Below, piece by piece: positions 4,699-29,913 of a DNA stretch of 40,070 nt. Source of the stretch: Actinomycetota bacterium. GTDB taxonomy: Bacteria; Actinomycetota; Actinomycetes; Nanopelagicales; Nanopelagicaceae. Numbering within the stretch: position 1 is the first letter of the stretch; each line of letters opens with the position of its first letter. A program made the position numbers and the translations under genes. The DNA lies in assembly GCA_041182705.1 (NCBI GenBank), contig JBEGNC010000118.1, forward strand, positions 1 through 40,070, given 5' to 3'. The notes beneath the pieces are model-generated. The model saw only the letters and a program-made list of their open reading frames with translations. It was not told the origin of the DNA and ran no database searches.

Positions 4699-4734
4699 AA
4701 CCTGCCAACGGTATCGCCCAATTACGCTTCCACC

Positions 4735-12887: not shown

Positions 12888-13726
12888 TGCGCCTTGATGT
12901 GATGAAGACCTACAAGCTATTCATCGGTGGTGCGTTCCCGCGGAGCGAATCTGGGCGCTCATACCAAGTTAAGGATAAGCGTGGTGAATTCATCGCAAAC
13001 CCAGCTTGGGCATCGCGGAAAGATCTACGTGACGCCGTAGTCGCCGCGAAAGGTTCTTTTTCTGGCTGGTCTCACGCGACTGCTTATAACCGAGGCCAGA
13101 TTCTCTATCGAATCGCTGAGATGATGGAGGGAAGAAGCGAACAGTTCATCGCCGAGATCATGGCGCTAGAAGGCGTGACTGAGAAGAATGCCCGAGCACA
13201 AGTATCGGAAGCGATCGACCTATGGGTCTGGTATGCCGGATGGACCGATAAGTTGTCTTCAATCTATGGCAGCACAAATCCAATCGCTGCTCCCTATTTC
13301 AACTTCACGATCCCAGAACCAATCGGAGTAGTCGGCATCATCTCCGAGGAGAAGGATTCGCTATTGGGATTAGTTCGTGCGTTGGCGCCGATCATCGCCA
13401 GCGGCAATAGCGCCGTTGTGATTTCTAGTGAAACTCGCCCACTTCCTGCAATGACCTTCGCTGAGGTACTTGCTACAAGTGATCTGCCAGCTGGTGTGGT
13501 CAATATCCTGACTGGCAAGAAAGCAGAACTTCTTCCTTGGCTCGCTTCGCACATGGATGTGGATGCACTCGATATCTCCGGTGCGAATCCAAAGTTGGAT
13601 GGTGAGTTACGCCGATTAGGAACCGAGAATCTGAAGCGGATCCATAGATTTAGTAAGAAGGATTCACCAAAACGGATTTTGAGCTACATGGAGTTGAAGA
13701 CGGTTTGGCACCCGATCGGAATCTAG
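12884..13726 (+). CDS. truncated aldehyde-dehydrogenase-like protein lacking the catalytic domain (280 aa)
   Basis: It aligns by eye to the N-terminal cofactor-binding half of the upstream ALDH (LPAGVVNILTG vs LPAGVVNIITG) and keeps a C-terminal tail (MELKTVW). It lacks PWNFP (it has SEEKDS), FTGST (it has ISGAN) and the whole Cys-containing catalytic domain. Its start overlaps the upstream stop (GTGATG). Confidence 0.7.
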   Translation: MMRLDVMKTYKLFIGGAFPRSESGRSYQVKDKRGEFIANPAWASRKDLRDAVVAAKGSFSGWSHATAYNRGQILYRIAEMMEGRSEQFIAEIMALEGVTEKNARAQVSEAIDLWVWYAGWTDKLSSIYGSTNPIAAPYFNFTIPEPIGVVGIISEEKDSLLGLVRALAPIIASGNSAVVISSETRPLPAMTFAEVLATSDLPAGVVNILTGKKAELLPWLASHMDVDALDISGANPKLDGELRRLGTENLKRIHRFSKKDSPKRILSYMELKTVWHPIGI

Positions 13727-15006
13727 CTGATTCGGGTAACAACCAGCGGTAATCGCTCTGCTAAAGAATCACCGATCTTCACCGCATCCTTCAAGGCTGC
13801 CTCGGCTCGTTCGAAACGATTCGGTTCATCGGTATGTAAGGTGAATAGCGGGTCTCCAGCTTTAATGGATTGACCTGGTTTGGCATGAATCTCGATTCCG
13901 GCACCAGCTTGCACCTGTTCACCTTGTCGTTCACGTCCGGCGCCCAATCGCCATGCCGCGATTCCTACGCTTAAGGCGTGCATCGAGGAGATGACGCCAG
14001 AATCGGTGGCGGAGATGATCTTCTCTTCGCGCGCTACCGGAAGTTTTCCATCTGGATCGCCACCCTGAGCGCGAACCATCCGCCGCCAATGATCCATCGC
14101 GCTTCCATCTTTTAGCGCGGTTTCGGGATCCTTGCCTTTGATCTGCGCAGCATCCAACATCTCGCGGGCGAGAATCAAAGTCAGTTCGACTACATCTGCG
14201 GGTCCGCCACCGGCAAGAACCTCGACTGATTCGCGAACCTCAAGAGCGTTACCTGCAGTTAGGCCGAGCGGAACATCCATCGCTGTTACTAAGGCGCGAG
14301 TGTTTACGCCAGCTCGCTTACCCAATGCCACCATCGTCTCGGCTAACTCCTTGGCCTGCTCAGGTTCCGACATGAATGCACCGTTACCGGTCTTCACATC
14401 GAGTATCAATGCGCTAGTTCCTTCTGCAATCTTCTTACTCATAATCGATGAAGCGATCAACGGAATTGATTGAACGGTAGCTGTCACATCACGGAGCGCA
14501 TATAGCTTCTTATCGGCCGGAGCCAGACCACTTCCCGCGGCACAAATTACGGCGCCACATTCTTGTAGAACTCTTAGCATTTCTTCATTTGATAGTGATG
14601 CCCGCCATCCTGGAATCGCTTCCATTTTGTCGAGGGTGCCTCCGGTATGACCCAAGCCGCGACCAGAGAGTTGTGGAACTGCAGCGCCACAAGCGGCAAC
14701 TAGCGGGGCCAATGGGAGCGTGATCTTGTCGCCGACTCCACCAGTGGAATGCTTATCAACAGTAGGTTTATTCAGCGCCTGCCAGGACATTCGCTCACCA
14801 CTTGCGATCATGGCATCGGTCCAACGTGAAATCTCTCGAGGATTCATCCCATTCAACAAGATTGCCATCAGCAATGCAGACATCTGTTCATCGGCGACTA
14901 CACCCCGTACATAAGCATCAATCACCCAATCAATCTGGGGATCGCTTAATTCAAATCGATCTCGTTTAGCAGAGATGATCTCAACAGCTGCAAACTTTTC
15001 AGCCAT
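13723..15006 (-). CDS. deoA: thymidine/pyrimidine-nucleoside phosphorylase
   Basis: It has the motifs KHSTGGVGDKITL and LSGRGLGHTGGTLDK. The size is 427 aa. Confidence 0.9.
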   Translation of the reverse strand: MAEKFAAVEIISAKRDRFELSDPQIDWVIDAYVRGVVADEQMSALLMAILLNGMNPREISRWTDAMIASGERMSWQALNKPTVDKHSTGGVGDKITLPLAPLVAACGAAVPQLSGRGLGHTGGTLDKMEAIPGWRASLSNEEMLRVLQECGAVICAAGSGLAPADKKLYALRDVTATVQSIPLIASSIMSKKIAEGTSALILDVKTGNGAFMSEPEQAKELAETMVALGKRAGVNTRALVTAMDVPLGLTAGNALEVRESVEVLAGGGPADVVELTLILAREMLDAAQIKGKDPETALKDGSAMDHWRRMVRAQGGDPDGKLPVAREEKIISATDSGVISSMHALSVGIAAWRLGAGRERQGEQVQAGAGIEIHAKPGQSIKAGDPLFTLHTDEPNRFERAEAALKDAVKIGDSLAERLPLVVTRIS

Positions 15007-15015
15007 GTGTTCGCC

Positions 15016-15408
15016 TCACTTGGATTTCTTCAGATCTTCTGGACCGAATCCCCAAGGCAGGATCTTCGACATCTTCATCGGCCCTTCGGGAGTTAGAAGT
15101 TCTAACTCACCTCCGCCATGCTCGAAGAGTAATTGGCGACATCTACCGCATGGTGAGAGCAGCGCACCATCTGCATCAACACAGACAACCGCTATTAGGC
15201 GTCCGCCACCCGTCATCGCCAAGCTTGAGACCATCGAACACTCCGCGCAGAGCGTCAATCCATAACTCGCGTTCTCCACATTGCAGCCACTGATCACACG
15301 ACCATCGTCTACCAAACCTGCAACCCCGACTGGGAATTTCGAATATGGTGCGTACGCAAACTTAGTGGCGCGCATCGCCTCTTCCTGCAACATCTTCCAG
15401 TCGATCAT
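15016..15408 (-). CDS. cdd: cytidine deaminase
   Basis: It has the zinc-ligand motifs CAECSMV and PCGRCRQ. I prefer the ATG at 15408 (130 aa). It is preceded by AGGAG in TAGGAGCGTCATG, where TAG is the stop of the upstream gene. The ORF-track start at 15447 would overlap that gene by 32 nt. Confidence 0.9.
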   Translation of the reverse strand: MIDWKMLQEEAMRATKFAYAPYSKFPVGVAGLVDDGRVISGCNVENASYGLTLCAECSMVSSLAMTGGGRLIAVVCVDADGALLSPCGRCRQLLFEHGGGELELLTPEGPMKMSKILPWGFGPEDLKKSK

Positions 15409-15415
15409 GACGCTC

Positions 15416-17383
15416 CTATCTTGGAAATCCTGCAGCAACGCCACCATCCACCGGTATTACAGCACCAGTCGTACGTGATGACTCATCTGAGAGCAGGAAC
15501 GCTACTGAGCGAGCGACATCAGATGAACGTACCCGCGCCTTGAGGATGTTTCGTTTGGCGTAGAAATCCTCGAGTTCCTCAGGTTTTACGCCATGCTCTT
15601 TCGCCCGCTGCTCTCGGATGCCACCCTCCCAGAGCTTGCTGTTGTCGAAGACCGCATCGGGATTTAGCGCATTGGCGCGCACACCAATCGCACCGCCTTC
15701 CAAAGCAGCAATCCGCATCAACTGGATCATTCCCGCCTTGGTCACGGAATATCCACCAAAGCCTGCGCCAGGTGCGAAGGCATTCTTACTTGCGATGTAG
15801 ACCAGTGAACCGCCCATTGCCTGGGTGCGCATAGCGCGCATCGCATACTTTGTTAAAAGGAATGAACTAGTCAGATTTATCTCGATGCCACGTCGCCATT
15901 GCTCCGGGGAAAGCTCTTCCAGAGTGCCAGGAACACCAATACCGGCGTTCAGTATGACGCCATCCAAGCCGCCGAAATTATCGATTGTCTTTGAAACCGT
16001 TTCCTGCACTACAGCTTCACTACTTTGATCGCCTTCGATAAGTAAAGGTTTGGCAAACTTTCCGGCAATAAATTCTGCTTCCGTTGCAGCTAGTCCCTTC
16101 GCATCTAAATCCGCCAATACCACATTCGCGCCGAGTGAGCCAAGGTGAAGCGCTATTCCGCGGCCAATGCCACTTCCGGCACCAGTAACGATAAAAATGT
16201 TTCCCGTAAGTGGCGGTGCCTTCGGTTTCAATTTCAACTTAAACAATTCCATCGGCCAATAATCAAAGCCAAATATCTCCGCATCCGGCAAGGTGCGCGG
16301 CTTAGGGAAACAATCGACGACAGTTGCGCCAACAGAGTGGGTATGGAATGCAATATCCGCCAGCATCTTGGTCTCACCGGTATTAGCGCCGGCGCCAATC
16401 ATGCCGACGCCAGGAGTTAGGAAGACTTTTGGATCATTGCCGTGGCTGGAATATCCCGGCGGCAAGAGCGACTTATTCGCCTCGAAGTACGAGTCGTATC
16501 GCGACCGGTAAGTATCAACAGCGTTCTCTAGATTCTCTGGAGTGAGCAGACAAGACCAAGGGCGGATACGAAGCATGTGATCAGCGCTGGCAGCACCAGC
16601 GGCAAGCACCTTCGGAAGATCTGTTCGATCTGCAATCTGGCGAAGTCTGGTGTCGACCCGGAGAACTTGCTTCTTACCGATCTTGCCGCGGAGCCGTAGT
16701 AGAAGTTCCCGGATCTCATCATCGCGCAGATCTTGATGTCGGAAATCCGCCTTCGGTGGCTCCTTTAAAGTAGCGAGGAACTTCTCGGCGGTTTCGACTG
16801 CCGCCAATGTCTTGCCGTAACACTTGTCGCTATCGTCATCCCAGACAATCAGTCCGTGATGGGCTAGCACCACGCCTTCATAATCCTTCAATTCACTTAC
16901 TAATTTTGAGAGTTCGAAACCTGGACGTAGCCATTCGACGAAGGCAAATCCCTCACCTAGGGCATCTTTCACCGCAGCTTGCGCGTCCTCATGGTTCGTC
17001 AGTGCACAGATCGCATCCGCATGGACGTGGTCTATATGTCGCGCCGGGAGAAAAGCATGAAGCAAGGTCTCGATAGATGGTCGGCGCGCGCTTGGATCGA
17101 CTAGTGCACGGGTAACGAAATCGACCATCGTGTCATCGTCTAGCTCGCCCTTGGCCTTCAGCGCAATCAGTTCTTCCAGATATAGAGCGGGATAGTCGAC
17201 TGCTTCGCCATACTGCATATCAGCGCCAGATCCCTTTACCCAAAGTACTTTTCGATTTCTTCCCAGGTAATCGGTGATCTCGCCCTTTGCAGAGGTATTT
17301 CCACCGCCATAAACGACGAGTGATTGATCTGCACCGATCAACTTAGAGCGTGCAACCAGTTTCGTAAGATCTGGATGGTTCAT
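15416..17383 (-). CDS. bifunctional class II aldolase / short-chain dehydrogenase (RhaD/YuxG/RhaEW-type fusion)
   Basis: The N-terminal half has class II aldolase/adducin motifs (GGGNTSAKG, HIDHVHAD, VLAHHGLIVW). The C-terminal half is a classical SDR (TGAGSGIGRGIA, NAGIG, YSVTKAG). Its ATG overlaps the mtnA stop (ATGA). Confidence 0.85.
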   Translation of the reverse strand: MNHPDLTKLVARSKLIGADQSLVVYGGGNTSAKGEITDYLGRNRKVLWVKGSGADMQYGEAVDYPALYLEELIALKAKGELDDDTMVDFVTRALVDPSARRPSIETLLHAFLPARHIDHVHADAICALTNHEDAQAAVKDALGEGFAFVEWLRPGFELSKLVSELKDYEGVVLAHHGLIVWDDDSDKCYGKTLAAVETAEKFLATLKEPPKADFRHQDLRDDEIRELLLRLRGKIGKKQVLRVDTRLRQIADRTDLPKVLAAGAASADHMLRIRPWSCLLTPENLENAVDTYRSRYDSYFEANKSLLPPGYSSHGNDPKVFLTPGVGMIGAGANTGETKMLADIAFHTHSVGATVVDCFPKPRTLPDAEIFGFDYWPMELFKLKLKPKAPPLTGNIFIVTGAGSGIGRGIALHLGSLGANVVLADLDAKGLAATEAEFIAGKFAKPLLIEGDQSSEAVVQETVSKTIDNFGGLDGVILNAGIGVPGTLEELSPEQWRRGIEINLTSSFLLTKYAMRAMRTQAMGGSLVYIASKNAFAPGAGFGGYSVTKAGMIQLMRIAALEGGAIGVRANALNPDAVFDNSKLWEGGIREQRAKEHGVKPEELEDFYAKRNILKARVRSSDVARSVAFLLSDESSRTTGAVIPVDGGVAAGFPR

Positions 17384-18399
17384 AATCTCTCTCCTTCACT
17401 TACTCGATAAACCTTCTTCTCAGTCACGACAGCAGTTATGTAACGTGCTGGTGTCACATCGAAGGCTGGGTTATATGTCCGAGAACCTTTTGGCGCGGTT
17501 GGAACGCCGGCGAATTCCGTCATCTCGCGATCATCGCGGAACTCAATCTCGATCTGACTGCCATCGGCAAGTGATCGATCTACCGTCGATTCTGGCGCAA
17601 CTACAAAGAATGGGACGCCAACTGCATGAGCTGCGACAGCCACCGCCAATGATCCGATCTTGTTCGCTGAATCGCCATTACGTGCAATCCGATCCGCGCC
17701 GATTGCCACAGCGTCGATTAGCCCCGCAAAGAGCGCACTTGCGGCTGCACCATCCGGAAGAATTCGATATGGAATTCCAATCTGAGCCAATTCCCATGCA
17801 GTCAGACGAGCGCCCTGGAGCAGTGGCCTGGTCTCATCAGCGAAAACCTCGCGAACCTTTCCGCGATCATTTAGTTCTTGGATCATTCCAAGAGCAGTTC
17901 CCCACTCGGTGGTCGCCAGCGCACCGGTATTGCAATGAGTAAGTATTGTGAAATCACCACTCTTGCCAGATTTAGCGAGGAGTTCAATTAGATGGTCTGC
18001 ACCAAGGGAACCCATTGCGCGATTGGCCCGACCATCTTCTGCAGCCATCTCGAGGGCGCGCTTTAACACCGCTGCCGCACCATCTTTGAGAAGCGGCCGT
18101 ACTTGATCGACTCCCCAAGCAAGATTCACCGCTGTCGGACGAGCAGTTCGCAACTCATCAACTGCTTTATCGATGCTTGCTGCGCTCCAGGAATCGCGCT
18201 CCGCATTCTTGGCGATCAAAGCTACGCCAAATGCGCCTGCGACACCGAGAGCTGGTGCGCCGCGAATCGCCAAACGCTTTATGGCATCTATTAATTGGAG
18301 ATGGTCATCAATCACCAATTCGACAGTTTCCAATGGCAGCCGCGTCTGGTCGAGCAGGTGGATCTGGCCATCTGCTTCGCTCCAACTTATGGTGCGCAC
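17380..18399 (-). CDS. mtnA: S-methyl-5-thioribose-1-phosphate isomerase (eIF-2B alpha/beta/delta-like family)
   Basis: It has the N-terminal IHLLDQTRLP and the GADRIARNGDSANKIGS motif. It has a GTG start at 18399 and a size of 339 aa. Confidence 0.85.
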   Translation of the reverse strand: MRTISWSEADGQIHLLDQTRLPLETVELVIDDHLQLIDAIKRLAIRGAPALGVAGAFGVALIAKNAERDSWSAASIDKAVDELRTARPTAVNLAWGVDQVRPLLKDGAAAVLKRALEMAAEDGRANRAMGSLGADHLIELLAKSGKSGDFTILTHCNTGALATTEWGTALGMIQELNDRGKVREVFADETRPLLQGARLTAWELAQIGIPYRILPDGAAASALFAGLIDAVAIGADRIARNGDSANKIGSLAVAVAAHAVGVPFFVVAPESTVDRSLADGSQIEIEFRDDREMTEFAGVPTAPKGSRTYNPAFDVTPARYITAVVTEKKVYRVSEGERL

Positions 18400-18451
18400 C
18401 TGCCTAGCCTAAACCCAACCTTTACCCTTGCTTCACCTGGGCTGGAGCGTA

Positions 18452-18480
18452 ATTACCTCTCATTCGTTACCTTCTTGTAA
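18452..18480 (-). promoter_or_regulatory. candidate sigma70-type promoter for the mtnA operon
   Basis: The minus strand reads TTACAA-17 nt-GGTAAT about 50 nt upstream of the mtnA GTG. This rests on the sequence pattern only. Confidence 0.25.
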
Positions 18481-18602
18481 TAGAAGCCACGCAAGCCATC
18501 GCCGCAGGCGGCTAATAATTGAAATCGCGCTTGGATAGGATTTCGGACGTCTCCAACGCGTTCCCCGCGTATTTCTTGATAAGGATTTACTCTCGTTGGG
18601 AG

Positions 18603-18618
18603 ATAATCGATCGATTAT
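18603..18618. promoter_or_regulatory. perfect 16-bp palindrome ATAATCGATCGATTAT, a candidate operator
   Basis: I verified base by base that it equals its own reverse complement. It overlaps a -10-like GATAAT (18602-18607) and lies 44 nt upstream of the BMP transporter ATG, in the only long intergenic region. Confidence 0.45.
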
Positions 18619-18620
18619 TG

Positions 18621-18643
18621 CTAACGCACTAATCACGCGTTAG
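18621..18643. promoter_or_regulatory. inverted repeat CTAACGC-N9-GCGTTAG (second operator half-site pair or 5'-UTR hairpin)
   Basis: It has perfect 7-bp arms and ends about 6 nt before the SD region GAGAGGAG of the BMP gene. Confidence 0.35.
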
Positions 18644-18661
18644 TCACTTGAGAGGAGTTAC

Positions 18662-19708
18662 ATGTTCAAGCGTATTGCGACTATCGTCGCAGCGTTAAGC
18701 ATTTCACTATTCGGTCTCGTTGGCTGCAGCAGCAGCGATGAGAATGCGGCAATCACAGAAGCTGATTGCGGCACCGAAGGTGCATTCTGTATCGGCCTAG
18801 TAACCGACACTGGCAAGGTTGATGACAAGTCATTCAACCAGTCTGCTTGGGAAGGTGCTGTAGCTGGCGCAGAGACAGTTGGTGGTTTCGCGAAGTACAT
18901 TGAGACCATTGATCCAAAAGATTATGCAACCAACATCGGACAGTTTGCCGAAAATGGTTACAACGTGATCATCGGTGTCGGCTTCTTGATGGCTGAAGCG
19001 ATGACTACCGCAGCAAATCAATATCCAGATATCAAGTTCATCGGTGTCGACCAGTTCCAAGGAACTGCGCTACCGAACTTGACTGGCCTTGTGTTCCCAG
19101 AAGATAAGGCTGGCTTCCTTGCTGGCTATCTCGCTGGCCACCTAACAACTTCTGGAAAGACTGGCGCCGTTCTCGGCACCGAAGTCGTTCCACCAGTCCG
19201 TTACTTCGGCGAAGGCTTCCGCAATGGCGTTGCCTACGCAGCTCAGGAAATGGGCAAGAGCTATCCAGAGACTCGTCTCGTCTATCACGCACCAGATAAC
19301 GCATTCAATGACCCAGCATGGGGCGCAGCCACTGCAAAGCAGTTGCTCTCCCAGGGTTATGACGTCATCTTCGGTGCTGGTGGAAATACCGGTAACGGCG
19401 CGCTCCTCGAGATCGCTAAGACCCCAGGTGCATATTGCATCGGTGTCGACGCTGATCAATGGGGAACACTGCCTGAAGCACAACCTTGCCTCGTAACTTC
19501 AGCGATGAAGTTGATCGACAAGGGCGTTGCAGCTCTAATCGAGCAGGCATCTGATGGATCAATCGCTGGCGGAAACTTCTTTGGTGAAGTCGGCCTTGCT
19601 CCTTACCATGACTTCGATTCCAAGCTCGCTCAGGACATCAAGGACAAGGTGGCTGCTCTAACGCCACAGGTCATCGATGGAACTGTTGCAACTGGAGTTA
19701 AGTTGTAA
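18662..19708 (+). CDS. BMP family (PnrA-like) ABC transporter substrate-binding lipoprotein, probably nucleoside-binding
   Basis: It has a lipobox (LFGLVGCSS) and the BMP motif DDKSFNQSAWEG. The size is 348 aa. Confidence 0.85.
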   Translation: MFKRIATIVAALSISLFGLVGCSSSDENAAITEADCGTEGAFCIGLVTDTGKVDDKSFNQSAWEGAVAGAETVGGFAKYIETIDPKDYATNIGQFAENGYNVIIGVGFLMAEAMTTAANQYPDIKFIGVDQFQGTALPNLTGLVFPEDKAGFLAGYLAGHLTTSGKTGAVLGTEVVPPVRYFGEGFRNGVAYAAQEMGKSYPETRLVYHAPDNAFNDPAWGAATAKQLLSQGYDVIFGAGGNTGNGALLEIAKTPGAYCIGVDADQWGTLPEAQPCLVTSAMKLIDKGVAALIEQASDGSIAGGNFFGEVGLAPYHDFDSKLAQDIKDKVAALTPQVIDGTVATGVKL

Positions 19709-19724
19709 GAGTCCTGTGACTCTA

Positions 19725-19758
19725 GAAGAGGGGAGGCGCGTGTGCGTCTCCCCTCTTC
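19725..19758 (+). other. stable stem-loop between the SBP and permease genes (possible partial terminator or mRNA-stabilising hairpin)
   Basis: GAAGAGGGGAG (19725-19735) pairs perfectly with CTCCCCTCTTC (19748-19758), and further partial pairing is possible in the 12-nt loop. No U-tract follows, so it is not a canonical intrinsic terminator. Confidence 0.5.
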
Positions 19759-19789
19759 AAATTAACCAGCAAAAGAGGAAGAATCAGGG

Positions 19790-20854
19790 TTGATGAAGAT
19801 ATCGGTAAGTAACAAGCAACTTCAGGCAATCTCCGTGCCATTACTTTCGATTGCCATTGCCCTCTTCTTCGGTGGGATCATGATTGCGCTTCAAGGAATC
19901 AACCCGCTGTATGCATATCAAGTTCTATTCATAAAAGCCTTTGGTTCCATCGAGGGAATCGCGACAACTTTGGCAAAGGCCACGCCATTGGTATTAAGCG
20001 GCCTTGCTGTCGCAGTTTGTCTGCGCGCTGGCCTGTTCAACATCGGTGCCCAAGGTCAGTTGATATCTGGCGCACTCGCCTCAGCTTGGGCCGGTTATTA
20101 CTTCGTCGGTCTGCCTAGCTTGGTACATATTCCATTAGCGTTACTTTTTGGCGCAGTCTTCGGTGCTCTTGTTGCACTCGTTGCTGGCGCACTCAAGGCT
20201 TATCGTGGCGTACATGAAGTGATCACAACCATCATGCTCAATAGCATCGTGATCGCACTTGCCGACTATCTAGCAAGCACGCCATTCAAGGAGCCAGATC
20301 AGCCTCTTACTCGCACTCCAGCGATCCAGGATTCCGCGCGCATCCCAGATATCTTCGGATTACCGCTTGGTTTCTTCATGGCAGTAGGACTTTCGGTTGC
20401 GCTCTGGTGGTTGATTATGAATACGACCACAGGTTTCCGTATCGAGACCATCGGAAGGAATCGGAATGCTGGTTGGTATGCCGGTATTTCAGTTAAGCGC
20501 GTGATCTTGATCAGCATGCTATTTGGCGGATCAATCGCTGGACTTGCTGGCGCTATCGAGACTCTTAGTATCACTGGAAGATTCGAGCCAGCATTCAATG
20601 CTGGTTTGGGTTTCGACGGGATCACCGTCGCCCTACTAGGAAGAGCTAATCCTTTAGGCGTTATCCCAGCAGCAATCTTGATCGGTGGAATGCGCGGCGC
20701 CGCTTCAACTATGCAATTCCGCGCGGGCGTAGCACCTGAGATTGTCGATTTGCTTCTTGCATTGATTCTATTCTTCGTTACGGCGCCGCTATTGATGCGT
20801 CTTTTGAAGAAGAAGCAAGAGGGTATCTCCCTTTCGAGCGGATGGAGTAACTAA
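19790..20854 (+). CDS. ABC transporter permease (BMP/simple-sugar type)
   Basis: It is a multi-TM protein of 354 aa. The start is TTG 19790 or ATG 19793, after AGAGGA. Confidence 0.85.
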   Translation: MMKISVSNKQLQAISVPLLSIAIALFFGGIMIALQGINPLYAYQVLFIKAFGSIEGIATTLAKATPLVLSGLAVAVCLRAGLFNIGAQGQLISGALASAWAGYYFVGLPSLVHIPLALLFGAVFGALVALVAGALKAYRGVHEVITTIMLNSIVIALADYLASTPFKEPDQPLTRTPAIQDSARIPDIFGLPLGFFMAVGLSVALWWLIMNTTTGFRIETIGRNRNAGWYAGISVKRVILISMLFGGSIAGLAGAIETLSITGRFEPAFNAGLGFDGITVALLGRANPLGVIPAAILIGGMRGAASTMQFRAGVAPEIVDLLLALILFFVTAPLLMRLLKKKQEGISLSSGWSN

Positions 20855-21834
20855 TGAAGATTCGGCTTGGTTACCTATCTGCGATTCCACTGCTTGTGGC
20901 TTTTGTCTACTTCTATCAAGTAAATTCGATGATCACGACCTCGGTGCTATTCACAGCAATCCCATTTGCGCTACCACTTGCGCTTGCGGCGATGGTCGGT
21001 GTGATGTGCGAGCGGACCGGAATCGTGAATATTGGTATCGAAGGGACTATGTTGGTCTCGGCCTTCACTGCTTTCTTCATCGGCGCCATCGTCAAGGACA
21101 CTGTGATCGGTTTAGCGGTCGGCATTGTGACCGGCGCGTTAGTTGGGCTCTTGCTATCGCTTATGACGATCTCCTGGAAGATGGATCAGATCATCGCGGG
21201 CGTGATCATCAATATCATGGCTGCAGGAATAACTTCATTCCTTTACAAGCAGAATTATTCGATCCCAGGGACTCTGCCACCGATTGACCTACCGATCATT
21301 GGTGACTTGCCGGTGCTGGGGCCGATCTTGTCCAAGCATGGTCCGATCACCTATTTCGGAATCGTCTTCATCATCGGTCTCTGGGTAGGCCTCTACAAGA
21401 CGCCGTGGGGCCTTCGCTCTCGATCAGTCGGCGAACATCCATCGAGCGCAGATACTGCAGGTGTCTCGGTGATTCGCCTCCGCTACATCAATGTGACGAT
21501 TGCTGGCGCTGTAGGTGGACTTGCTGGAAGTTATCTCGCTTTGGAAGCGGTTGGAATATTCGAGCGCGGTTTCACTGCAGGAAAGGGCTTCACGGCCCTT
21601 GCAATCATGATCTTTGGAAGATGGAATCCGATGGGCGCATTCGCAGCAGCGCTCTTCTTCGGCCTTGCGCAAGCCGTTACAAATCAATTGATGATCGATG
21701 AGATCGTCAAGATCCCACAGCAATTCATCAATATGTTGCCATATGTTCTGACCATCTTGATCCTTGCAATCTCAGCAGGCAAAGTTCGGCCGCCAGCAGC
21801 CGAAGGAATCCCATATGAGAAGGAGAAGGTATGA
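20854..21834 (+). CDS. ABC transporter permease (BMP/simple-sugar type)
   Basis: It is a multi-TM protein of 326 aa. Its start overlaps the upstream stop by 1 nt. Confidence 0.85.
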   Translation: MKIRLGYLSAIPLLVAFVYFYQVNSMITTSVLFTAIPFALPLALAAMVGVMCERTGIVNIGIEGTMLVSAFTAFFIGAIVKDTVIGLAVGIVTGALVGLLLSLMTISWKMDQIIAGVIINIMAAGITSFLYKQNYSIPGTLPPIDLPIIGDLPVLGPILSKHGPITYFGIVFIIGLWVGLYKTPWGLRSRSVGEHPSSADTAGVSVIRLRYINVTIAGAVGGLAGSYLALEAVGIFERGFTAGKGFTALAIMIFGRWNPMGAFAAALFFGLAQAVTNQLMIDEIVKIPQQFINMLPYVLTILILAISAGKVRPPAAEGIPYEKEKV

Positions 21835-23339
21835 CAAATCTCCTTGACGTCAGAAATATCAGCAAAGCCTTCGGGTCGGTTCAGGCCAACTCAGATATCT
21901 CGTTATCGGTAGCTCCAGGCGAGATTGTTGCGCTACTTGGCGAGAATGGCGCAGGTAAGTCGACGCTGGTCAAGGCGGTCTTTGGATTAGTTCGCCCAGA
22001 TTCTGGAACGATTGCAATCAAAGGTGAACAACTAACACCGGGCGATACCGCAGGTGCGATTGCGCGTGGCGTCGGTATGGTGCACCAGCATTTCCAATTG
22101 GTCCCAGTCATGACCGTTACCGAGAATTTGATATTGGGCGATGAACCAAAGAGATTCGGCTTCCTGCAGATGAATCGTGCTCGTAAAGAAGCCCAAGAAC
22201 TCTCTGAGCGATATGGCTTAGAAGTAGATCCAGATGCATTGATTGAGGATCTTCCAGTTGGTATGGCGCAGCGTGTCGAGATTCTAAAGGCGCTACGCCG
22301 TGATGTTAGCTTGTTGATTCTAGATGAGCCGACTGCGGTACTTACCCCGCAAGAGACCGATGAACTTCTCGCCGTGCTACGGAATCTTGCTAAGAAGGGC
22401 GTGGGCATACTCTTCATCACCCATAAATTGCGCGAAGTGATGGCGATCGCAGATCGCGTCGTCGTTCTGCGAAATGGAAAGTTAGTCGGCACGACTTCAC
22501 CAAAAGAGAGTAGTGAAGCCCAATTAGCCCAGATGATGGTCGGCCGAGCAGTGGTCTTGGAAGTAGAGAAAGGACCGGCAAAACCTAAGGATCCAGCGCT
22601 GGTTGTCGACGGAATCAAAGTGCTCGACGATCGCAAATTAGAAGCGGTTAAGGGGCTATCGCTCTCCGTAAAGTCCGGTGAGATCCTCGGCATCGCAGGT
22701 GTCGAAGGTAATGGCCAGCGAGAATTAGTCGAGGCAATCTGTGGGATGCGTTCTCGAATCGAAGGAACCGTATCGATAAATGGAAATCCATTACCCAATC
22801 TCAATCCGAAAGCCGCCCATGAGGCTGGAGTTTCGCATATACCTGAGGATCGCGAGAAGCATGGCTTGGTATCAAGTTACTCAATCTCGGATAACTTGAT
22901 CTTGAACTGTTTCGACCAAGAACCATATGCACATGGCTGGGTCAGAGATCACGCCGCTGTTGCTGCCAATGGCGCTGCACTGGTTAAGGAATTCGATATC
23001 CGAACTCCCAGTCCGGATCTACCAGCCGGTTCTCTCTCTGGCGGGAACAAGCAAAAAGTCGTTGTAGCGCGTGAACTTAGTCAGGATCTCAGTGTTGTCG
23101 TTGCAGCCCAACCAACACGCGGCGTCGATGTCGGATCTATTGAATTCATCCATAATCAATTGATTGCTGCGCGCGATAATGGAGCTGCGGTCCTCTTGGT
23201 TTCCGCTGAATTGGATGAAGTACTTTCGCTATCCGACCGAATCTCGGTTATCTATGCCGGGAAGATCGTCGCTACCTTCGATTCTGAAGGTGCGGATCGA
23301 GCGAAGATCGGACGGATGATGGCTGGGTTAACTGATTAA
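21831..23339 (+). CDS. ABC transporter ATP-binding protein with two fused ABC domains
   Basis: It has Walker A GENGAGKST, a second P-loop GVEGNGQRE, the signature LSGGNKQK and a Walker B ILDEPT. It has a 4-nt overlap with the upstream permease. Confidence 0.9.
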   Translation: MTNLLDVRNISKAFGSVQANSDISLSVAPGEIVALLGENGAGKSTLVKAVFGLVRPDSGTIAIKGEQLTPGDTAGAIARGVGMVHQHFQLVPVMTVTENLILGDEPKRFGFLQMNRARKEAQELSERYGLEVDPDALIEDLPVGMAQRVEILKALRRDVSLLILDEPTAVLTPQETDELLAVLRNLAKKGVGILFITHKLREVMAIADRVVVLRNGKLVGTTSPKESSEAQLAQMMVGRAVVLEVEKGPAKPKDPALVVDGIKVLDDRKLEAVKGLSLSVKSGEILGIAGVEGNGQRELVEAICGMRSRIEGTVSINGNPLPNLNPKAAHEAGVSHIPEDREKHGLVSSYSISDNLILNCFDQEPYAHGWVRDHAAVAANGAALVKEFDIRTPSPDLPAGSLSGGNKQKVVVARELSQDLSVVVAAQPTRGVDVGSIEFIHNQLIAARDNGAAVLLVSAELDEVLSLSDRISVIYAGKIVATFDSEGADRAKIGRMMAGLTD

Positions 23340-23341
23340 CC

Positions 23342-24094
23342 ATGGCTAAGTTGGCCTTGATCGCAGGTACCGGTTTCTATGACCTACCTAATCTAACCGA
23401 CCGTAATGAACGGCTCGTCGATACCAAATATGGGCAAGCTAAAGTCATTGAAGGAAGATTGGGCGATATCGAACTGGTCTTCCTGACCCGCCATGGCAGC
23501 GGCCACACCATCCCGCCTCATATGATCAATTATCGAGCCAATATCAAGGCTTTACAGGACCTCGGCGTCTCATCGGTAATAGCGGTAAATGTGGTCGGTG
23601 GCGTAGATCCCACTTTGAAACCTGGTGACTTAACTTTGATCGATGACTTCATCGATTACACATCAGGGCGGATCAATACATTCTTTGATGGTGGTGACGA
23701 GTTTGGCGTCCAGCATATCGACATGACAAATGTATACGACAAGAAAATCCAAGCAGCTCTTCTGGCAAGCGCAACCTCACTTGGAATTAGCTTGCGAACC
23801 GGTGCTGTTTATGCCGGATTTAATGGGCCGCGTTTCGAGACCCCGGCAGAGATTCGGATGGTGGCTCAGGCGGGTGGAACCGTAGTTGGGATGACTGGTT
23901 GTCCGGAAGCAGCGCTCGCACGCGAGATTGCGCTGCCTTATGCAGCAATTGCGCTTATCGTGAATCCCGCTGCCGGCTTAAGCGAGGAAGAGATAACCAT
24001 GGAGGAAATTAATCGCGCATTGGATGCAGGACGGAATAAGGTACTTGCTATCTTGGCTGATGCAGTCTCGCGGATTGCGAAAGCAAGTGAGTGA
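23342..24094 (+). CDS. mtnP: S-methyl-5'-thioadenosine (or 5'-methylthioinosine) phosphorylase, MTAP family
   Basis: It has LTRHGSGHTIPPHMINYRANIKAL and GPRFETPAEIRM typical of MTAP-family phosphorylases. The size is 250 aa. Confidence 0.8.
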   Translation: MAKLALIAGTGFYDLPNLTDRNERLVDTKYGQAKVIEGRLGDIELVFLTRHGSGHTIPPHMINYRANIKALQDLGVSSVIAVNVVGGVDPTLKPGDLTLIDDFIDYTSGRINTFFDGGDEFGVQHIDMTNVYDKKIQAALLASATSLGISLRTGAVYAGFNGPRFETPAEIRMVAQAGGTVVGMTGCPEAALAREIALPYAAIALIVNPAAGLSEEEITMEEINRALDAGRNKVLAILADAVSRIAKASE

Positions 24095-25394
24095 ATTAGA
24101 TCTTTCGATAGCTAATGCAAGTTATCTGATCACATCAAATAGCACTGGGGAGATTCATCAGGACGTCTCGATTGGAATCAAGGATGGCGCGATTGTAGAG
24201 ATTTCCAATTCACCACTGACTGCCACGCACACTTATGATGCAAGAGGTAAGTTGGTTGCGCCAGGCTTGATAAATGCGCATACCCATCTTGCTATGACGC
24301 TCTTCCGCGGCTGGGCTGAAGGGGTCGATCTTCAAGGATTCTTGGAATTGGTCTGGGCAGCTGAGGGCGCAATCATGGATGCACCGACGGCTGAACTTGG
24401 CACCAAGTTAGGCGCTTATGAAGCGCTCCTTAGTGGAACGACCACAGCCCTTGATATGTATCTATTTCCAGATGCAGCCCACCGGGGCGCAGTCGCAGCC
24501 GGCCTACGCCATCTCGGCGGGCCGATTTTCTTTGATTTTCCCGGGCTAGACGGGCTGGAGTGGGAGGAGCGGCTCGCCTTAGCGCGACGCTGGCCTGCGA
24601 TCCTGGCAGAGATTGGTGGCCCTGAAGTGCCTGGGTATCTGATGCCACATGCAACCTATACCTGCTCGCCAGAACATCTGACTGAGATTGCATCAATTGC
24701 AACCGAACTCGATTACTACATACACATCCACGCATCTGAGAACTTACGTGAGAATCAAGATGTAGCGACCCAGTATCACCGGACTCCTACTGAGATTCTT
24801 GCCGATTCGAAGATCATCGATCGCAACGTCGTATTAGGTCATGGCGTTCATCTCAGTGATTCAGATCTTAAGCTCCTGAGTGGACGAGGTGCGGTAGCGC
24901 ACTGCCCGGGAAGTAATTTGAAACTCGCTAGCGGCATTGCGGATATCCGGAAGTATCAAGGAACTGGTGTTGGCGTCGCTCTCGGAACTGACGGTTGTTC
25001 ATCGAGTAACGATCTCGATATGTGGGTCGTTATGCGATTGGCTGCGTACTTGATTGCCCAGACCAGATCACCACGTGAAGTATCTGCAGAACAAGTCTTT
25101 CGAATGGCGACGATTGATGGGGCAAGGGCCCTTGGAATCGATCACCTTGTCGGAAGTGTGGAAGTTGGTAAGCGCGCCGATTTGATCGCTCTCGAGCTGG
25201 ATGCGCCGCATCTAATTCCGATGTATGACCCATTTGCCCAACTCGTCTTTGCAGCTGGCCGCTCCGATGTAAGCGATGTCTGGGTTGATGGCGAACAAGT
25301 GATCGCTGCAAGAAAATCGACGCGATTGGATTACCCAGAACTTCGAAGCGCGGTATTGGCAAAGACCGAAGGATTGAAAGAGCGGTTGAAGTGA
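24087..25394 (+). CDS. mtaD: amidohydrolase, 5'-methylthioadenosine/S-adenosylhomocysteine (5'-deoxyadenosine) deaminase type
   Basis: It has the metal motif INAHTHLAM, HASE and LGTDGCSSSNDLDM. I prefer GTG 24087 (435 aa, 8-nt overlap with the mtnP stop). The ORF-track ATG at 24024 would overlap mtnP by 71 nt. Confidence 0.75.
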   Translation: MSELDLSIANASYLITSNSTGEIHQDVSIGIKDGAIVEISNSPLTATHTYDARGKLVAPGLINAHTHLAMTLFRGWAEGVDLQGFLELVWAAEGAIMDAPTAELGTKLGAYEALLSGTTTALDMYLFPDAAHRGAVAAGLRHLGGPIFFDFPGLDGLEWEERLALARRWPAILAEIGGPEVPGYLMPHATYTCSPEHLTEIASIATELDYYIHIHASENLRENQDVATQYHRTPTEILADSKIIDRNVVLGHGVHLSDSDLKLLSGRGAVAHCPGSNLKLASGIADIRKYQGTGVGVALGTDGCSSSNDLDMWVVMRLAAYLIAQTRSPREVSAEQVFRMATIDGARALGIDHLVGSVEVGKRADLIALELDAPHLIPMYDPFAQLVFAAGRSDVSDVWVDGEQVIAARKSTRLDYPELRSAVLAKTEGLKERLK

Positions 25395-25813
25395 ATGTAT
25401 CTGAGATCATCAAGACCCTTGGGCTTACTCCACTTGAGGGCGAGGGTGGTCTTTGGCGCGAGATCTACCGAGATGAAGCAAGCAACGCCATATATTTCGC
25501 CATGTCCGCACCAGATTTCTCGGCTTGGCATCGAATCGAGGAGCCCGAACTCTGGATACATATCGCGGGCGGCCCGACTGATCTCCATCTCATCGAATCG
25601 GGCGAATTGCGCACAATCAGGTTAGACCGCGACTCTGGCGAATTCGCATATCGAGTTCCACCCCGGACCTGGATGGCCGCCTCACCGGTTAAGGATTGGT
25701 CGCTCCAAATCTGCGCTTTGACCCCAGCGTTTTCCGGTATGGAGCTAGCCTCGCGCGCAGAACTGGAGCGAGAGTTTCCCAATCTAAATCTGCCAGGATT
25801 GTTCCATGAGTAA
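25391..25813 (+). CDS. DUF985 (cupin_5) family protein of unknown function
   Basis: LEGEGGLWREIYR, SAWHRIEEPELWIHIAGGP and ICALTPAFSGMELA match the DUF985 cupin pattern as I remember it. The GTG start overlaps the mtaD stop (GTGA). Confidence 0.65.
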   Translation: MNVSEIIKTLGLTPLEGEGGLWREIYRDEASNAIYFAMSAPDFSAWHRIEEPELWIHIAGGPTDLHLIESGELRTIRLDRDSGEFAYRVPPRTWMAASPVKDWSLQICALTPAFSGMELASRAELEREFPNLNLPGLFHE

Positions 25814-26504
25814 ACCAAAGGTATTGATAACTGGCGCAAGCGGTTTGATTGGTAAATCCATGGTCGCTCACTTCCTAAATCAAGGATGGTCGGTGATTGC
25901 GCAAGTAAATGGAAATGGTGAGCGCTTGGCTGAAGTTTCTAATCAGATAGAAATCATCAAGAGCGATCTTTCGATACCTGGGAATGGAACTGCTTTGATT
26001 AACCAGCTTGATAATCTCGAGTTGGTCGTAAACAATGCAGCTGACCAGTCTGTTATCCAACCGACTGAACTACGCACCGAGGCAATCGAGGCGATGTTTC
26101 GCGTTAATCTCTTTGCACCACTTGAGATCATCGCTGCAGCGCGCTCGAAAGGTGTTCGAACCTGTATCAACATCTCCTCAATAGAGGCTCACTCCGCCCG
26201 TGCGGGCCACGAGATTTATGGCGCAAGTAAGGCGGCGCTGGAATCGATTACCAAGAGCCTCTCGGTCGCCTTTGCTCCAATGCGGATCAATGGGGTTCGA
26301 CTTGGCTTGGTTGGTGAACCAAGTATCGAATCTCGCTGGCCAGATGGCGTAGTCGCCTGGCAAAACGCTGTACCAAGTAAGCGATACGCCTCGCCAGATG
26401 AGGTTGCAAAGTTCGTCCATGCGATATCTACCGACTCATTTGATTACACGACGGGGGCCATCTTCGATTTCGATGGCGGGAAGAGCGCTAGCGCCGGCTG
26501 GTAA
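25806..26504 (+). CDS. SDR family oxidoreductase
   Basis: It has TGASGLIGKS, NNAA and YGASKAA (YxxxK). The size is 232 aa, and it has an 8-nt overlap with the cupin gene. Confidence 0.85.
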   Translation: MSKPKVLITGASGLIGKSMVAHFLNQGWSVIAQVNGNGERLAEVSNQIEIIKSDLSIPGNGTALINQLDNLELVVNNAADQSVIQPTELRTEAIEAMFRVNLFAPLEIIAAARSKGVRTCINISSIEAHSARAGHEIYGASKAALESITKSLSVAFAPMRINGVRLGLVGEPSIESRWPDGVVAWQNAVPSKRYASPDEVAKFVHAISTDSFDYTTGAIFDFDGGKSASAGW

Positions 26505-29771: not shown

Positions 29772-29857
29772 AGAGTCGATAAGGGTACCGAAGGGTGGAA
29801 ATCCCCGCAGCCACCCTCTTCCCTCACGCGGGACTCTCGCCTAATCTTCGCCAATCC

Positions 29858-29913
29858 GCACTTCATCCAACGGACCGTCGGGCACGTACCTGCCCGGAGA
29901 AGGAAGGAAGAAA
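29858..29913 (+). ncRNA. structured 5' leader of msiK (candidate msiK RNA motif)
   Basis: A GC hairpin CGGGCA/TGCCCG (29879-29884 with 29891-29896) lies immediately 5' of the purine-rich SD tract GGAGAAGGAAGGAAG. An upstream pyrimidine tract CTTCATCC (29861-29868) is complementary to parts of that SD tract. A conserved msiK 5'-UTR motif is known in Actinobacteria, but I cannot verify a match to its covariance model. Confidence 0.35.

Follow-up and report, generated by a model that had tools for sequence, protein, structure and literature searches.

A nucleoside-utilisation cassette of freshwater acI actinobacteria joining a BMP-type ABC importer to a predicted MTA/SAH/adenosine-type deaminase and a 5'-methylthioinosine-phosphorylase-like enzyme

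Which nucleosides does a BMP-type ABC importer serve when its genes run into those of a phosphorylase and an amidohydrolase, and in what order would the two enzymes act? The locus that raises this question lies on contig JBEGNC010000118.1 of the actinobacterial assembly GCA_041182705.1, of which we analysed positions 1 to 40,070 (the window, 40,070 nucleotides). Comparison with related genomes revealed a variable nucleoside-utilisation island in Candidatus Nanopelagicaceae (acI), freshwater actinobacteria, and the locus is best read as one of its cassettes.

Gene chain and control regions

The first-pass annotation had described six genes, encoding a substrate-binding protein (SBP), two permeases, a double ATPase, a phosphorylase and a deaminase. 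Their coordinates (Table 1) and junctions were borne out, as was the placement of the ATPase after the permeases (SBP-permease-permease-ATPase). Read directly from the sequence, the two permease genes overlap by 1 nt (TAATG, at 20854), the second permease and ATPase genes by 4 nt (ATGA, 21831-21834) and the phosphorylase and deaminase genes by 8 nt (24087-24094), while a 2-nt gap separates the ATPase from the phosphorylase gene (TAA-CC-ATG, 23339/23342). Of the proposal that these genes form one translationally coupled unit, the tight junctions stand, but the chain runs past 25394 to 26504, with a GTGA overlap between the deaminase and DUF985 cupin genes and an 8-nt overlap between the cupin gene and the terminal SDR gene; moreover, since tight junctions are common in operons, they do not prove translational coupling. 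Permease 1 starts at TTG 19790 or at the neighbouring ATG 19793. For the deaminase, the GTG at 24087 is the best start, because relatives align from residue 1-3 of this version onwards; alternative in-frame ATGs lie at 24024 and 24060. The DUF985 cupin has 1ZNP, 3LOI/3LZZ and 1YUD as PDB relatives.

Table 1. Features of the cassette, its divergent operon and the regions between them, in window coordinates.
Feature	Position	Strand	Basis
Thymidine/pyrimidine-nucleoside phosphorylase (deoA)	13723..15006	-	NF004490, 630 bits (cut-off 269)
Cytidine deaminase (cdd)	15016..15447	-	NF004064, 176.6 bits (cut-off 74)
Class II aldolase-SDR fusion	15416..17383	-	Pfam Aldolase_II and adh_short
MtnA, 5-methylthioribose-1-phosphate isomerase; first gene of the divergent operon	17380..18399	-	TIGR00512
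Divergent control region between mtnA and SBP gene	18400..18661	.	Palindrome and inverted repeat
BMP/PnrA-family SBP lipoprotein	18662..19708	+	Pfam Bmp, 144 bits
Perfect 15-bp stem-loop	19725..19758	+	Directly 3' of SBP gene, within SBP/permease 1 gap
ABC permease 1	19790..20854	+	Pfam BPD_transp_2, 154 bits
ABC permease 2	20854..21834	+	Pfam BPD_transp_2, 131 bits
ABC ATPase, two nucleotide-binding domains, CUT2-like	21831..23339	+	Pfam ABC_tran, two stretches
MTAP-fold phosphorylase, predicted 5'-methylthioinosine-phosphorylase (6-oxopurine) type	23342..24094	+	PNP_UDP_1, NF006599
Amidohydrolase, predicted MTA/SAH/5'-deoxyadenosine/adenosine deaminase group (COG0402 type)	24087..25394	+	Pfam Amidohydro_1, 201.8 bits
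DUF985 (Cupin_5) protein	25391..25813	+	Pfam Cupin_5
SDR, final gene of the chain	25806..26504	+	Pfam adh_short

The SBP and permease 1 genes are 81 nt apart, and the sequence spanning this gap (19705-19795) folds at -43 kcal/mol (z = -6.6; none of 200 shuffles was as stable). A strong hairpin of different sequence occupies the same place in 26 of the 28 relatives examined. This element is likely an intercistronic attenuator, which may act on transcription, or an mRNA stabiliser, and would probably hold the SBP mRNA above that of the membrane and enzyme genes. Contigs from an RNA library are far deeper over the SBP gene than downstream, a weak signal to which DNA carry-over may contribute; they touch every gene and bridge no junction, and could likewise include DNA. 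No internal promoter-like site was found between 18662 and 26000. The divergent control region holds a 16-bp perfect palindrome (18603-18618) and a 7-N9-7 inverted repeat (18621-18643), and of 13 relatives inspected, 2 have a near-identical AAATCGATCGATTT-type palindrome about equally far from the SBP start; a search of the region for Rfam riboswitches returned none.

Assignment of the phosphorylase, the deaminase and the SBP

The phosphorylase scored 272.4 bits against NF006599, the S-methyl-5'-thioinosine phosphorylase equivalog (cut-off 223, exceeded in only 2 of 14 control genomes), and 256.7 bits against the MTAP model TIGR01694, below its cut-off of 274.85. Its top PDB match was 3OZB (E 5.5e-60), which we take to be the P. 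aeruginosa MTI phosphorylase PA3004. By alignment, the Glu of RFETPAE and the Asn of VNPAAG are present in both proteins. At the positions of human PNP Glu201 and Asn243, this pair is found in the window phosphorylase and all 80 retrieved relatives, one truncated locus having the Glu only, and the MTAP-type control L013 carries RFSTRAE and TDLDAG, that is, Ser and Asp-x-Asp. In human PNP and MTAP, from which these rules come, Glu/Asn denotes the 6-oxopurine recognition of PNPs and Ser with Asp-x-Asp that of MTAP. Twelve residues beyond the Asn, the window enzyme and 3OZB have Met where PunA-type PNPs of the same genus show His (SHEEV), an equivalence given by alignment only; ordinary PNPs bind the 5'-OH with a His at this position. 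The NF006599 score, the top PDB match and the Glu/Asn/Met signature together support, at sequence level, an MTI-phosphorylase-like rather than an MTAP-like enzyme. Inspection of the residues that separate adenine from hypoxanthine recognition, which the first-pass annotation had advised, thus returned a 6-oxopurine-type pair plus Met. Its description of an MTAP-family phosphorylase, perhaps specific for MTI or 5'-deoxyinosine, held for the fold and for the MTI-type model and residues, but the enzyme fell short of the MTAP model itself.

The amidohydrolase had been called an MTA/SAH-type deaminase, and solved deaminases of the MTA/SAH/adenosine type are indeed its nearest structures. The best match was 4F0R (243 bits, E 4e-71), followed by 3LNP (235), 4DYK/4GBD (221) and 4DZH (220), and every one of the five top-ranking PDB sequences, which make up six entries, is an MTA/SAH-type deaminase or a structural-genomics relative of that class (E 1e-64 to 1e-71). 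Guanine deaminases reached at most 98 bits (E 5e-27) and triazine hydrolase 82 bits; the PDB ranking, with guanine deaminases so far behind, supports the MTA/SAH/adenosine type as the predicted class, and not a guanine- or cytosine-type amidohydrolase. The motifs HTH, PHA, HIHASE, GHGVH and GTDG align with 4F0R, leaving the metal ligands (HxH, His, His, Asp) and the catalytic Glu intact. All NCBIfam equivalog cut-offs were missed (PRK09045, 357.8 versus 540; DadD, 283 versus 522; MTA/SAH deaminase, 197.6 versus 779), which places the protein in a separate subfamily.

The SBP has a lipobox (LVGC, residues 19-22) and found Lbp (7X0R, E 6e-42) as its top PDB match, then PnrA/TmpC (2FQW). In the alignment it matches all the PnrA contacts Asp27, Phe36, Asp108, Phe186, Asp238 and Lys260, which provide an aromatic sandwich and Asp/Asp/Lys ribose contacts (PMC7093131, PMC13325309), and Lbp, its nearest solved relative, was crystallised with guanosine bound (PMC9601137). 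The genome has no full BMP importer other than the cassette's system, and relatives carry this transporter co-operonic with cdd-deoA. With all canonical contacts kept, no second full BMP system and the cdd-deoA linkage, a broad nucleoside importer is more likely, and these same observations tell against the earlier proposal of an importer dedicated to MTA or 5'-dAdo. The importer gives no sign of a preference for 5'-modified nucleosides, which counts against our preferred reading of the locus as set out below.

Cassette exchange, gene linkage and downstream metabolism

Among 24 same-genus genomes, the phosphorylase, the deaminase, MtnA and the SBP subtype (73-88% identity) occur in the same 10, and none of them occurs in the other 14; these congeners are related, and the counts are not independent events. 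Every cassette type lies between msiK-cnnm-trpS-orphan BMP and cdd, with deoA and the deoC-ALDH-mutase genes beyond cdd in types A and B. Between these flanks the 14 other congeners carry either a PunA + Add cassette or a Udp-like/RihA + Add cassette, exactly the arrangement of BMP loci beside cdd-deoA-add that had been noted at first pass. Canonical Add is present in 10 of the 14 cassette-free congeners versus 1 of the 10 cassette-bearing ones, and the SBP subtype shares no more than 32-35% identity with its counterparts in the other cassettes. Two points here weigh against the preferred reading: the exclusion with respect to Add and PunA could mean mere replacement for adenosine and inosine, and a DeoD-type PNP elsewhere in the genome of 9 of the 10 cassette-bearing congeners means that canonical purine nucleosides need not use the phosphorylase-deaminase pair.

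Beyond the genus, about 40 Nanopelagicales loci keep the block phosphorylase-deaminase-cupin-SDR unchanged, with the BMP transporter beside it in either of two orders. In Acidimicrobiia a further arrangement groups mtnA with a BMP ABC system, the phosphorylase and an aldolase/SDR-like gene; the retrieved relatives from Proteobacteria and Nitrospirota have no transporter nearby.

On the divergent side, MtnA scored 376 bits against TIGR00512 (cut-off 279), and the gene for the aldolase-SDR fusion, which missed the RhaD-ADH equivalog cut-off, overlaps mtnA by 4 nt. G005 and G013 have a stand-alone 216-aa class II aldolase at the very position of the fusion, in its stead, and a class II aldolase in one of these two forms always follows mtnA. 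Together with the strict co-occurrence with MtnA in the genus, this upholds the suggested link to the divergent mtnA-aldolase/SDR operon. The genes that mark a DHAP shunt are found here, with an MtnA-type isomerase adjoining a class II aldolase, plus an MTI-type phosphorylase. Hpt is present in the genome, and cdd, deoA, deoC and a phosphosugar mutase are kept for ordinary nucleosides. Searches of G000 and of five congeners with 91-99% completeness returned no spermidine synthase (SpeE), and G000 has only 3-4 radical-SAM genes; these few endogenous sources, the presence of Hpt and the 14 congeners without the module were counted in favour of imported substrates. Scavenging of reduced sulfur, a further early suggestion, found no support, as no gene of the locus would release or re-assimilate methylthio sulfur.

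Proposed route, alternatives and known systems

From gene content, junctions, family memberships, signature residues, co-occurrence and cassette replacement, all directly observed, we infer substrates, reaction order and co-transcription as follows. The BMP/PnrA SBP, two permeases and double ATPase would bring in nucleosides, probably over a broad range, and the MtaD/DadD-like amidohydrolase would deaminate adenine nucleosides, likely MTA and 5'-deoxyadenosine and probably adenosine too. The phosphorylase, a presumed trimer of MTAP fold in which Glu/Asn would form a 6-oxopurine site and Met a non-polar 5' pocket, would cleave the inosine forms. Hypoxanthine would then pass to Hpt, and 5-methylthio- or 5-deoxy-ribose-1-phosphate to MtnA and on to the class II aldolase-SDR fusion, giving DHAP and a C2 aldehyde that would be oxidised or reduced, a variant of the DHAP shunt; cdd and deoA of the divergent operon would process imported pyrimidine nucleosides. 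Family assignments, signature residues, strict co-occurrence and cassette replacement make the deaminase-first route feeding the DHAP shunt well supported by inference. The whole reading, a broad nucleoside importer joined to this route, we hold to be probable, if well short of assured.

Plain nucleoside catabolism would account for several of the same observations. The deaminase would then be an adenosine deaminase and the phosphorylase an inosine/guanosine PNP, the pair would be a non-orthologous replacement of Add and PunA, and MtnA and the aldolase would do no more than clear the few radical-SAM by-products that the cell itself makes. The MTI phosphorylase of M. jannaschii is reported to act on six purine nucleosides and also in general purine salvage (PMC6302742), and in our genomes Add and PunA are absent exactly where the pair occurs (the single Add-bearing congener above apart), the cassette occupies the site of the classical BMP-cdd-deoA-add cassette, and cdd-deoA follow the same transporter in relatives. 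We nevertheless regard this explanation as rather unlikely, because the phosphorylase has Met in place of the 5'-OH-binding His kept by the genus's own PunA and passes the MTI-phosphorylase equivalog model, most cassette-bearing congeners already have a DeoD-type PNP, and a pair yielding mainly ribose-1-P would give little reason for MtnA and the aldolase to accompany it so strictly. Dedicated scavenging of 5'-deoxynucleosides, through an SBP specific for MTA, 5'-dAdo or their inosine forms, draws on the perfect co-variation of the divergent SBP subtype with the enzyme set, the 2-nt ATPase-phosphorylase gap, the few endogenous sources found, E. coli DHAP-shunt operons with a transporter gene and growth on exogenous 5'-deoxynucleosides (PMC12632272), and dissolved MTA measurable in seawater (PMC9723752). 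It is nonetheless doubtful at best, given that no canonical PnrA contact to ribose or base has been lost, that the genome has no other full BMP importer and also keeps cdd, deoA, deoC and phosphosugar mutase, and that the transporter is co-operonic with cdd-deoA in relatives. It seems to us very improbable that the enzymes merely detoxify endogenous SAM by-products beside an importer whose adjacency is functionally meaningless. The transporter-free surroundings of the retrieved Proteobacteria and Nitrospirota relatives would suit such a role, as would the P. aeruginosa MTA deaminase and MTI phosphorylase genes, presumably unlinked to any transporter; however, the importer linkage persists through two orders in Nanopelagicales and a third in Acidimicrobiia, the whole module is absent from 14 congeners with similarly streamlined genomes, and SpeE was not found in G000 and the five congeners.

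Set beside known systems, the preferred deaminase-first route resembles that of P. aeruginosa, with its MTA deaminase PA3170 (4GBD/4DYK) and MTI phosphorylase PA3004 (3OZB), as PMC6302742 summarises it from Guan et al. 2011, 2012. Both have the same two enzyme families, with deamination followed by phosphorolysis of the inosine form to hypoxanthine, and the two phosphorylases agree in their Glu/Asn purine site and in having Met in the 5' region, though both enzymes show only moderate identity (E 5.5e-60 for the phosphorylase, 2e-64 for the deaminase). The pseudomonad genes are unlinked, have no known importer and feed methionine salvage, whereas the acI locus has the 8-nt overlap, an ABC importer upstream, and MtnA with an aldolase (DHAP shunt) in place of a full methionine cycle. 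DadD and the MTI phosphorylase of M. jannaschii likewise handle 5'-dAdo and MTA deaminase-first, with a broad-range 6-oxopurine phosphorylase (PMC6302742), but this system is archaeal, has no known importer and sends the sugar phosphate to other fates, and the acI deaminase stays well below the DadD cut-off. The DHAP shunt for 5-deoxyribose salvage in R. rubrum and extraintestinal E. coli (MtnP or MtnN + MtnK, MtnA, Ald2) has, as here, MtnA followed by a class II aldolase, and its E. coli operon includes a transporter gene, exogenous 5'-deoxynucleosides supporting growth (PMC12632272, PMC10986504). The acI version differs in its predicted entry by deaminase and MTI-type phosphorylase, not nucleosidase plus kinase or MTAP, in its SDR-fused aldolase, in its four-gene BMP-type ABC transporter and in the extra conserved DUF985 and SDR genes. 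With PnrA/TmpC, BmpD/BmpA, pneumococcal PnrA and Lbp the acI SBP shares the Bmp fold, lipoprotein anchor, aromatic sandwich and Asp/Asp/Lys ribose contacts, and the acI system shares with these importers a double ATPase and two permeases as partners; it differs in its order, theirs being SBP-ATPase-permease-permease, and in being co-operonic with the deaminase-phosphorylase pair. The kinds of enzyme are already known; the packaging of an importer, a deaminase and an MTI-type phosphorylase in one cassette, as these acI genomes have it, has not previously been described.

Nucleoside cassettes at a fixed chromosomal site

We compared the window's own genome (G000; 1.04 Mb, 80% complete) with 24 genomes of the same genus; these are related to one another, and the counts below are not independent events. 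None of the conclusions draws on the unpublished genome G030. The nearest public loci belong to metagenome-assembled genomes labelled Candidatus Nanopelagicaceae, Nanopelagicales or Planktophila, that is, to the freshwater acI lineage. Orthologues of the phosphorylase, the deaminase, MtnA and the substrate-binding protein (SBP; 73-88% identity) occur together in the same ten genomes (G001, G005, G006, G010-G014, G017 and G024) and in none of the other 14, whose BMP binding protein is merely 32-35% identical to that of the window. Canonical adenosine deaminase has the reverse distribution, being present in 10/14 genomes without the window's set (type A) versus one of the ten that carry it (G010). 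A PunA-type purine nucleoside phosphorylase (PNP) lies beside the mutase gene in 6/14, and others among the 14 hold a RihA-like hydrolase with two Udp-like phosphorylases.

Types A, B and C are flanked alike, by msiK-cnnm-trpS-orphan BMP at one end and by cdd at the opposite end, and beyond cdd types A and B continue into deoA and the deoC-ALDH-mutase genes. Common flanks around differing contents point to a replaceable cassette at a fixed site, in which the importer subtype goes with the enzyme set. The "hard-wired" link between importer and enzymes proposed in the first-pass annotation is thereby supported, the SBP subtype co-varying with the enzymes among the 24 congeners. In the type-A genome G010, one contig (C3) also carries type-C genes, namely add at 552-1535 with an in-frame TGA and a Udp-like pair at 3789-5122, which could reflect a mixture of bins or a second, decaying cassette.

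Linkage extends beyond the genus. The phosphorylase-deaminase-cupin-SDR block is constant in about 40 Nanopelagicales loci, where the BMP transporter stands either before it, as in the window, or after it and followed by cdd-deoA. Acidimicrobiia loci group mtnA, the phosphorylase and an aldolase/SDR-like gene with a BMP system whose order is the classical SBP-ATPase-permease-permease, and their deaminase and cupin are divergent; near the proteobacterial and Nitrospirota relatives no transporter was found. That the genes stay linked in two classes despite three different orders speaks for function.

Within the window, direct reading confirmed the junctions previously described (overlaps of 1, 4 and 8 nt and one 2-nt gap), and the cupin and SDR genes are joined to the chain by further overlaps of 4 and 8 nt. 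The deaminase start was placed at a GTG and not at ATGs further upstream, since the GTG version resembles its relatives from residue 1-3 onward. Further upstream, beyond the mtnA operon, lie genes for a PGM/PMM-family mutase, DeoC and an aldehyde dehydrogenase (ALDH). The full-length ALDH gene is followed by a half-length paralogue, which we regard as a real gene since its length and 63-79% identity are kept in all cassette types. At the other end, the orphan Bmp-like gene adjoins trpS in types A, B and C; some type-A relatives lack it there (e.g., G001, G011 and G014), which places it outside the variable cassette.

Features of the cassette region in the window, with the three cassette types (L-numbers, loci retrieved from relatives)
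Feature	Location	Strand	Remarks
Type A	window 13723-26504
Type B	L138/L029 (G009)		SBP'-ATPase'-permeases'-cdd-deoA-add plus PunA
Type C	L139/L052 (G022)		another BMP system, MFS transporter, RihA-like gene, two Udp-like genes, add
Half-length ALDH paralogue	12884-13726	+	280 aa
mtnA, class II aldolase-SDR fusion, cdd, deoA		-	divergent, across the 262-nt region from the SBP gene
Inverted repeats in the 262-nt region	18603-18643		perfect 16-bp palindrome and 7-N9-7 inverted repeat
Chain of eight genes	18662-26504	+	ORF calls and profile searches
Bmp-family binding protein (SBP)	18662-19708	+	lipoprotein signal LVGC
Gap fold	19705-19795		-43 kcal/mol, z = -6.6
Hairpin in the gap after the SBP gene	19725-19758		perfect 15-bp stem
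BPD_transp_2 permeases, two	19790-20854 and 20854-21834	+
ATPase	21831-23339	+	two ABC domains
PNP_UDP_1 phosphorylase	23342-24094	+
Amidohydro_1 protein (deaminase)	24087-25394	+	GTG start
DUF985 cupin	25391-25813	+
SDR	25806-26504	+
Orphan Bmp-like protein	26488-27447	-	match covers N-terminal half of profile only
msiK RNA motif (RF01747)	29853-29912	+	61.6 bits, E 7e-13; upstream of msiK/UgpC-like ATPase gene

Predicted substrate recognition by the phosphorylase, deaminase and sugar branch

Two NCBI equivalog models place the phosphorylase. It scores 272 against a cut-off of 223 for S-methyl-5'-thioinosine (MTI) phosphorylase, a model exceeded in only 2/14 control genomes, and 256.7 against 274.85, hence below the cut-off, for 5'-methylthioadenosine (MTA) phosphorylase (MTAP). 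Its top solved relative is 3OZB (E 5.5e-60), which we take to be the P. aeruginosa MTI phosphorylase PA3004. We aligned the window enzyme with 80 retrieved relatives and three controls; residue roles in PaMTIP, and in PA3170 and DadD among the deaminases, rest on alignments and general background. The Glu of an RFETPAE stretch and the Asn of a VNPAAG stretch, the positions of human PNP Glu201 and Asn243, are present in the window enzyme and all relatives, one truncated locus showing the Glu alone. In human PNP these residues read N1-H and O6/N7 of 6-oxopurines. At these positions an actinobacterial MTAP control carries Ser and Asp-x-Asp, with which MTAP reads adenine. In both the window enzyme and 3OZB the alignment places a Met twelve residues beyond the Asn; the genus's own PunA-type PNPs have a His there, which binds the 5'-OH. 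From this Glu/Asn and Met signature, the phosphorylase should accept hypoxanthine-type nucleosides and have a non-polar 5' site, which favours the earlier proposal of an MTI/5'-deoxyinosine-type enzyme. Sequence cannot tell how strongly inosine would be selected against, and for an M. jannaschii enzyme of the MTI-phosphorylase type, activity on six purine nucleosides is reported (PMC6302742). The window phosphorylase is the sole PNP_UDP_1 gene found in the 80%-complete G000; the idea that it is the genome's only PNP, and hence a generalist, was dropped, as a DeoD-type PNP lies elsewhere in 9/10 cassette-bearing congeners.

The five top PDB sequences for the deaminase (six entries: 4F0R, 3LNP, 4DYK/4GBD and 4DZH) match with E-values of 1e-64 to 4e-71, and 4F0R is named an MTA/SAH deaminase by its depositors. 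Guanine deaminases and triazine hydrolases match far more weakly, so a guanine/cytosine-type amidohydrolase, the identity that would have undone the proposed deaminase-first route, is disfavoured. Metal ligands and the catalytic Glu align with those of the solved relatives, and the protein falls below every NCBIfam equivalog cut-off. As judged from these alignments, it is a predicted distinct subfamily of the MTA/5'-deoxyadenosine (5'-dAdo)/adenosine deaminase group.

In the sugar branch, MtnA exceeds its equivalog cut-off and the aldolase-SDR fusion lies below that of rhamnulose-phosphate aldolase/ADH. Two congeners, G005 (L017, 9883-10533) and G013 (L020, 2999-3649), carry a 216-aa stand-alone class II aldolase in place of the fusion, between mtnA and cdd, which is the DHAP-shunt arrangement of Rhodospirillum and E. 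coli. In Nanopelagicales the phosphorylase and deaminase genes are invariably followed by those for the DUF985 cupin and SDR (25391-26504 in the window). A GDP-bound form exists for 3LOI/3LZZ, a PDB relative of the cupin, and hints at a purine ligand.

Importer range, substrate source and control elements

All six PnrA ligand-contact residues (roles as in PMC7093131 and PMC13325309) are kept in the SBP alignment, and its top solved relative, Lbp, was crystallised with guanosine (PMC9601137). A reading of Lbp as a laminaribiose binder was set aside, given the guanosine in the pocket of the structure paper and the continued growth of a transporter-L deletion strain on laminaribiose; the NCBIfam "putative B6 ABC transporter" labels were likewise rejected, with scores far under their cut-offs (e.g., 49.5 against 400 for the SBP). 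The genome holds no other full BMP importer, its second Bmp match being the orphan; for ordinary nucleosides it also retains cdd, deoA, deoC and the mutase. Taken together, the PnrA contacts, the guanosine of Lbp, the single importer and these catabolic genes make a broad nucleoside importer more likely than one dedicated to 5'-deoxynucleosides. Low identity to the SBPs of the other cassettes leaves room for a shifted ligand range.

Cells can have only a small internal flux of MTA and 5'-dAdo: searches of G000 and of five congeners of 91-99% completeness turned up no spermidine synthase, G000 holds three or four radical-SAM genes, and fourteen congeners live without the phosphorylase-deaminase-MtnA module. 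Hpt and Apt are present. A Pfs/MtnN-type nucleosidase was found in 0/24 genomes, PNP_UDP_1 matches having been sorted into four classes (MTI, PunA, DeoD and Udp) by locus, length and profile span, with DeoD, PunA and Udp typed. With so small a flux, external supply is the more plausible source for a putative eight-gene operon that includes an importer. In seawater, MTA can be measured as a dissolved metabolite (PMC9723752); our literature search found no such data for freshwater. The most specialised version of this idea seems improbable to us: that type A serves some acI species as a dedicated pathway for living on MTA and 5'-dAdo, SAM waste nucleosides that other plankton release, with an SBP subtype tuned to 5'-modified nucleosides and with the DUF985 cupin and SDR processing the C2 or methylthio fragment, perhaps as a reduced-sulfur source for sulfate-assimilation-deficient cells.

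The 81-nt gap after the SBP gene folds into a hairpin that is a conserved structural element: a strong hairpin lies directly 3' of the SBP gene in 26/28 relatives (L054-L104), its position and strength kept and its sequence different, with stems of 13-22 bp and in many cases a T-rich tail. As a candidate intercistronic attenuator, it would set the SBP-to-transporter ratio. Contigs from four metatranscriptome runs (three studies) touch every gene and are far deeper over the SBP gene than downstream, but none bridges a junction, DNA carry-over is possible, depth cannot rank genes and uncovered stretches are meaningless; the deeper SBP contigs are a weak hint, consistent with attenuation and no proof of it. 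As for the inverted repeats in the divergent region, only 2/13 relatives have a similar AAATCGATCGATTT-type palindrome, 59-65 nt ahead of the SBP start, and the window holds no regulator gene. A riboswitch or leader RNA in this region or in the SBP/permease gap was rejected, Rfam giving no match at its gathering thresholds and, on the hairpin, only miRNA matches due to chance. A promoter/terminator consensus scan was uninformative, with fewer sites than shuffled sequence gave.

Known chemistry in a new package

The component chemistries are known. A deaminase-first route has been described in P. aeruginosa and M. jannaschii, and BMP importers are known from spirochaetes and Firmicutes. The DHAP shunt is established in Rhodospirillum and in E. 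coli, the E. coli operon including a transporter gene (PMC12632272). Our literature search found no paper on the combined systems, the permease-permease-ATPase order, the DUF985 and SDR tail, or cassette polymorphism in acI. The single enzymes are already documented in Pseudomonas, methanogens, Rhodospirillum and E. coli; the novelty is one of packaging, distribution and ecology and not of mechanism.

Bacteria of the acI lineage (Nanopelagicales) are among the most abundant in freshwater, and their uptake from dissolved organic matter is known only in part. For three gene types with poor annotation (the "TRZ/ATZ hydrolase", the "rhamnulose-phosphate aldolase/SDR" fusion and DUF985), the cassettes supply a working context. 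Congeneric species carry different versions of a swappable nucleoside cassette at one constant position in the chromosome; the type-A version would combine an importer with a deaminase-first route able to dispose of 5'-deoxy and 5'-methylthio nucleosides via the DHAP shunt. Such a cassette gives niche partitioning between acI species that live side by side a concrete basis, and one that can be tested.
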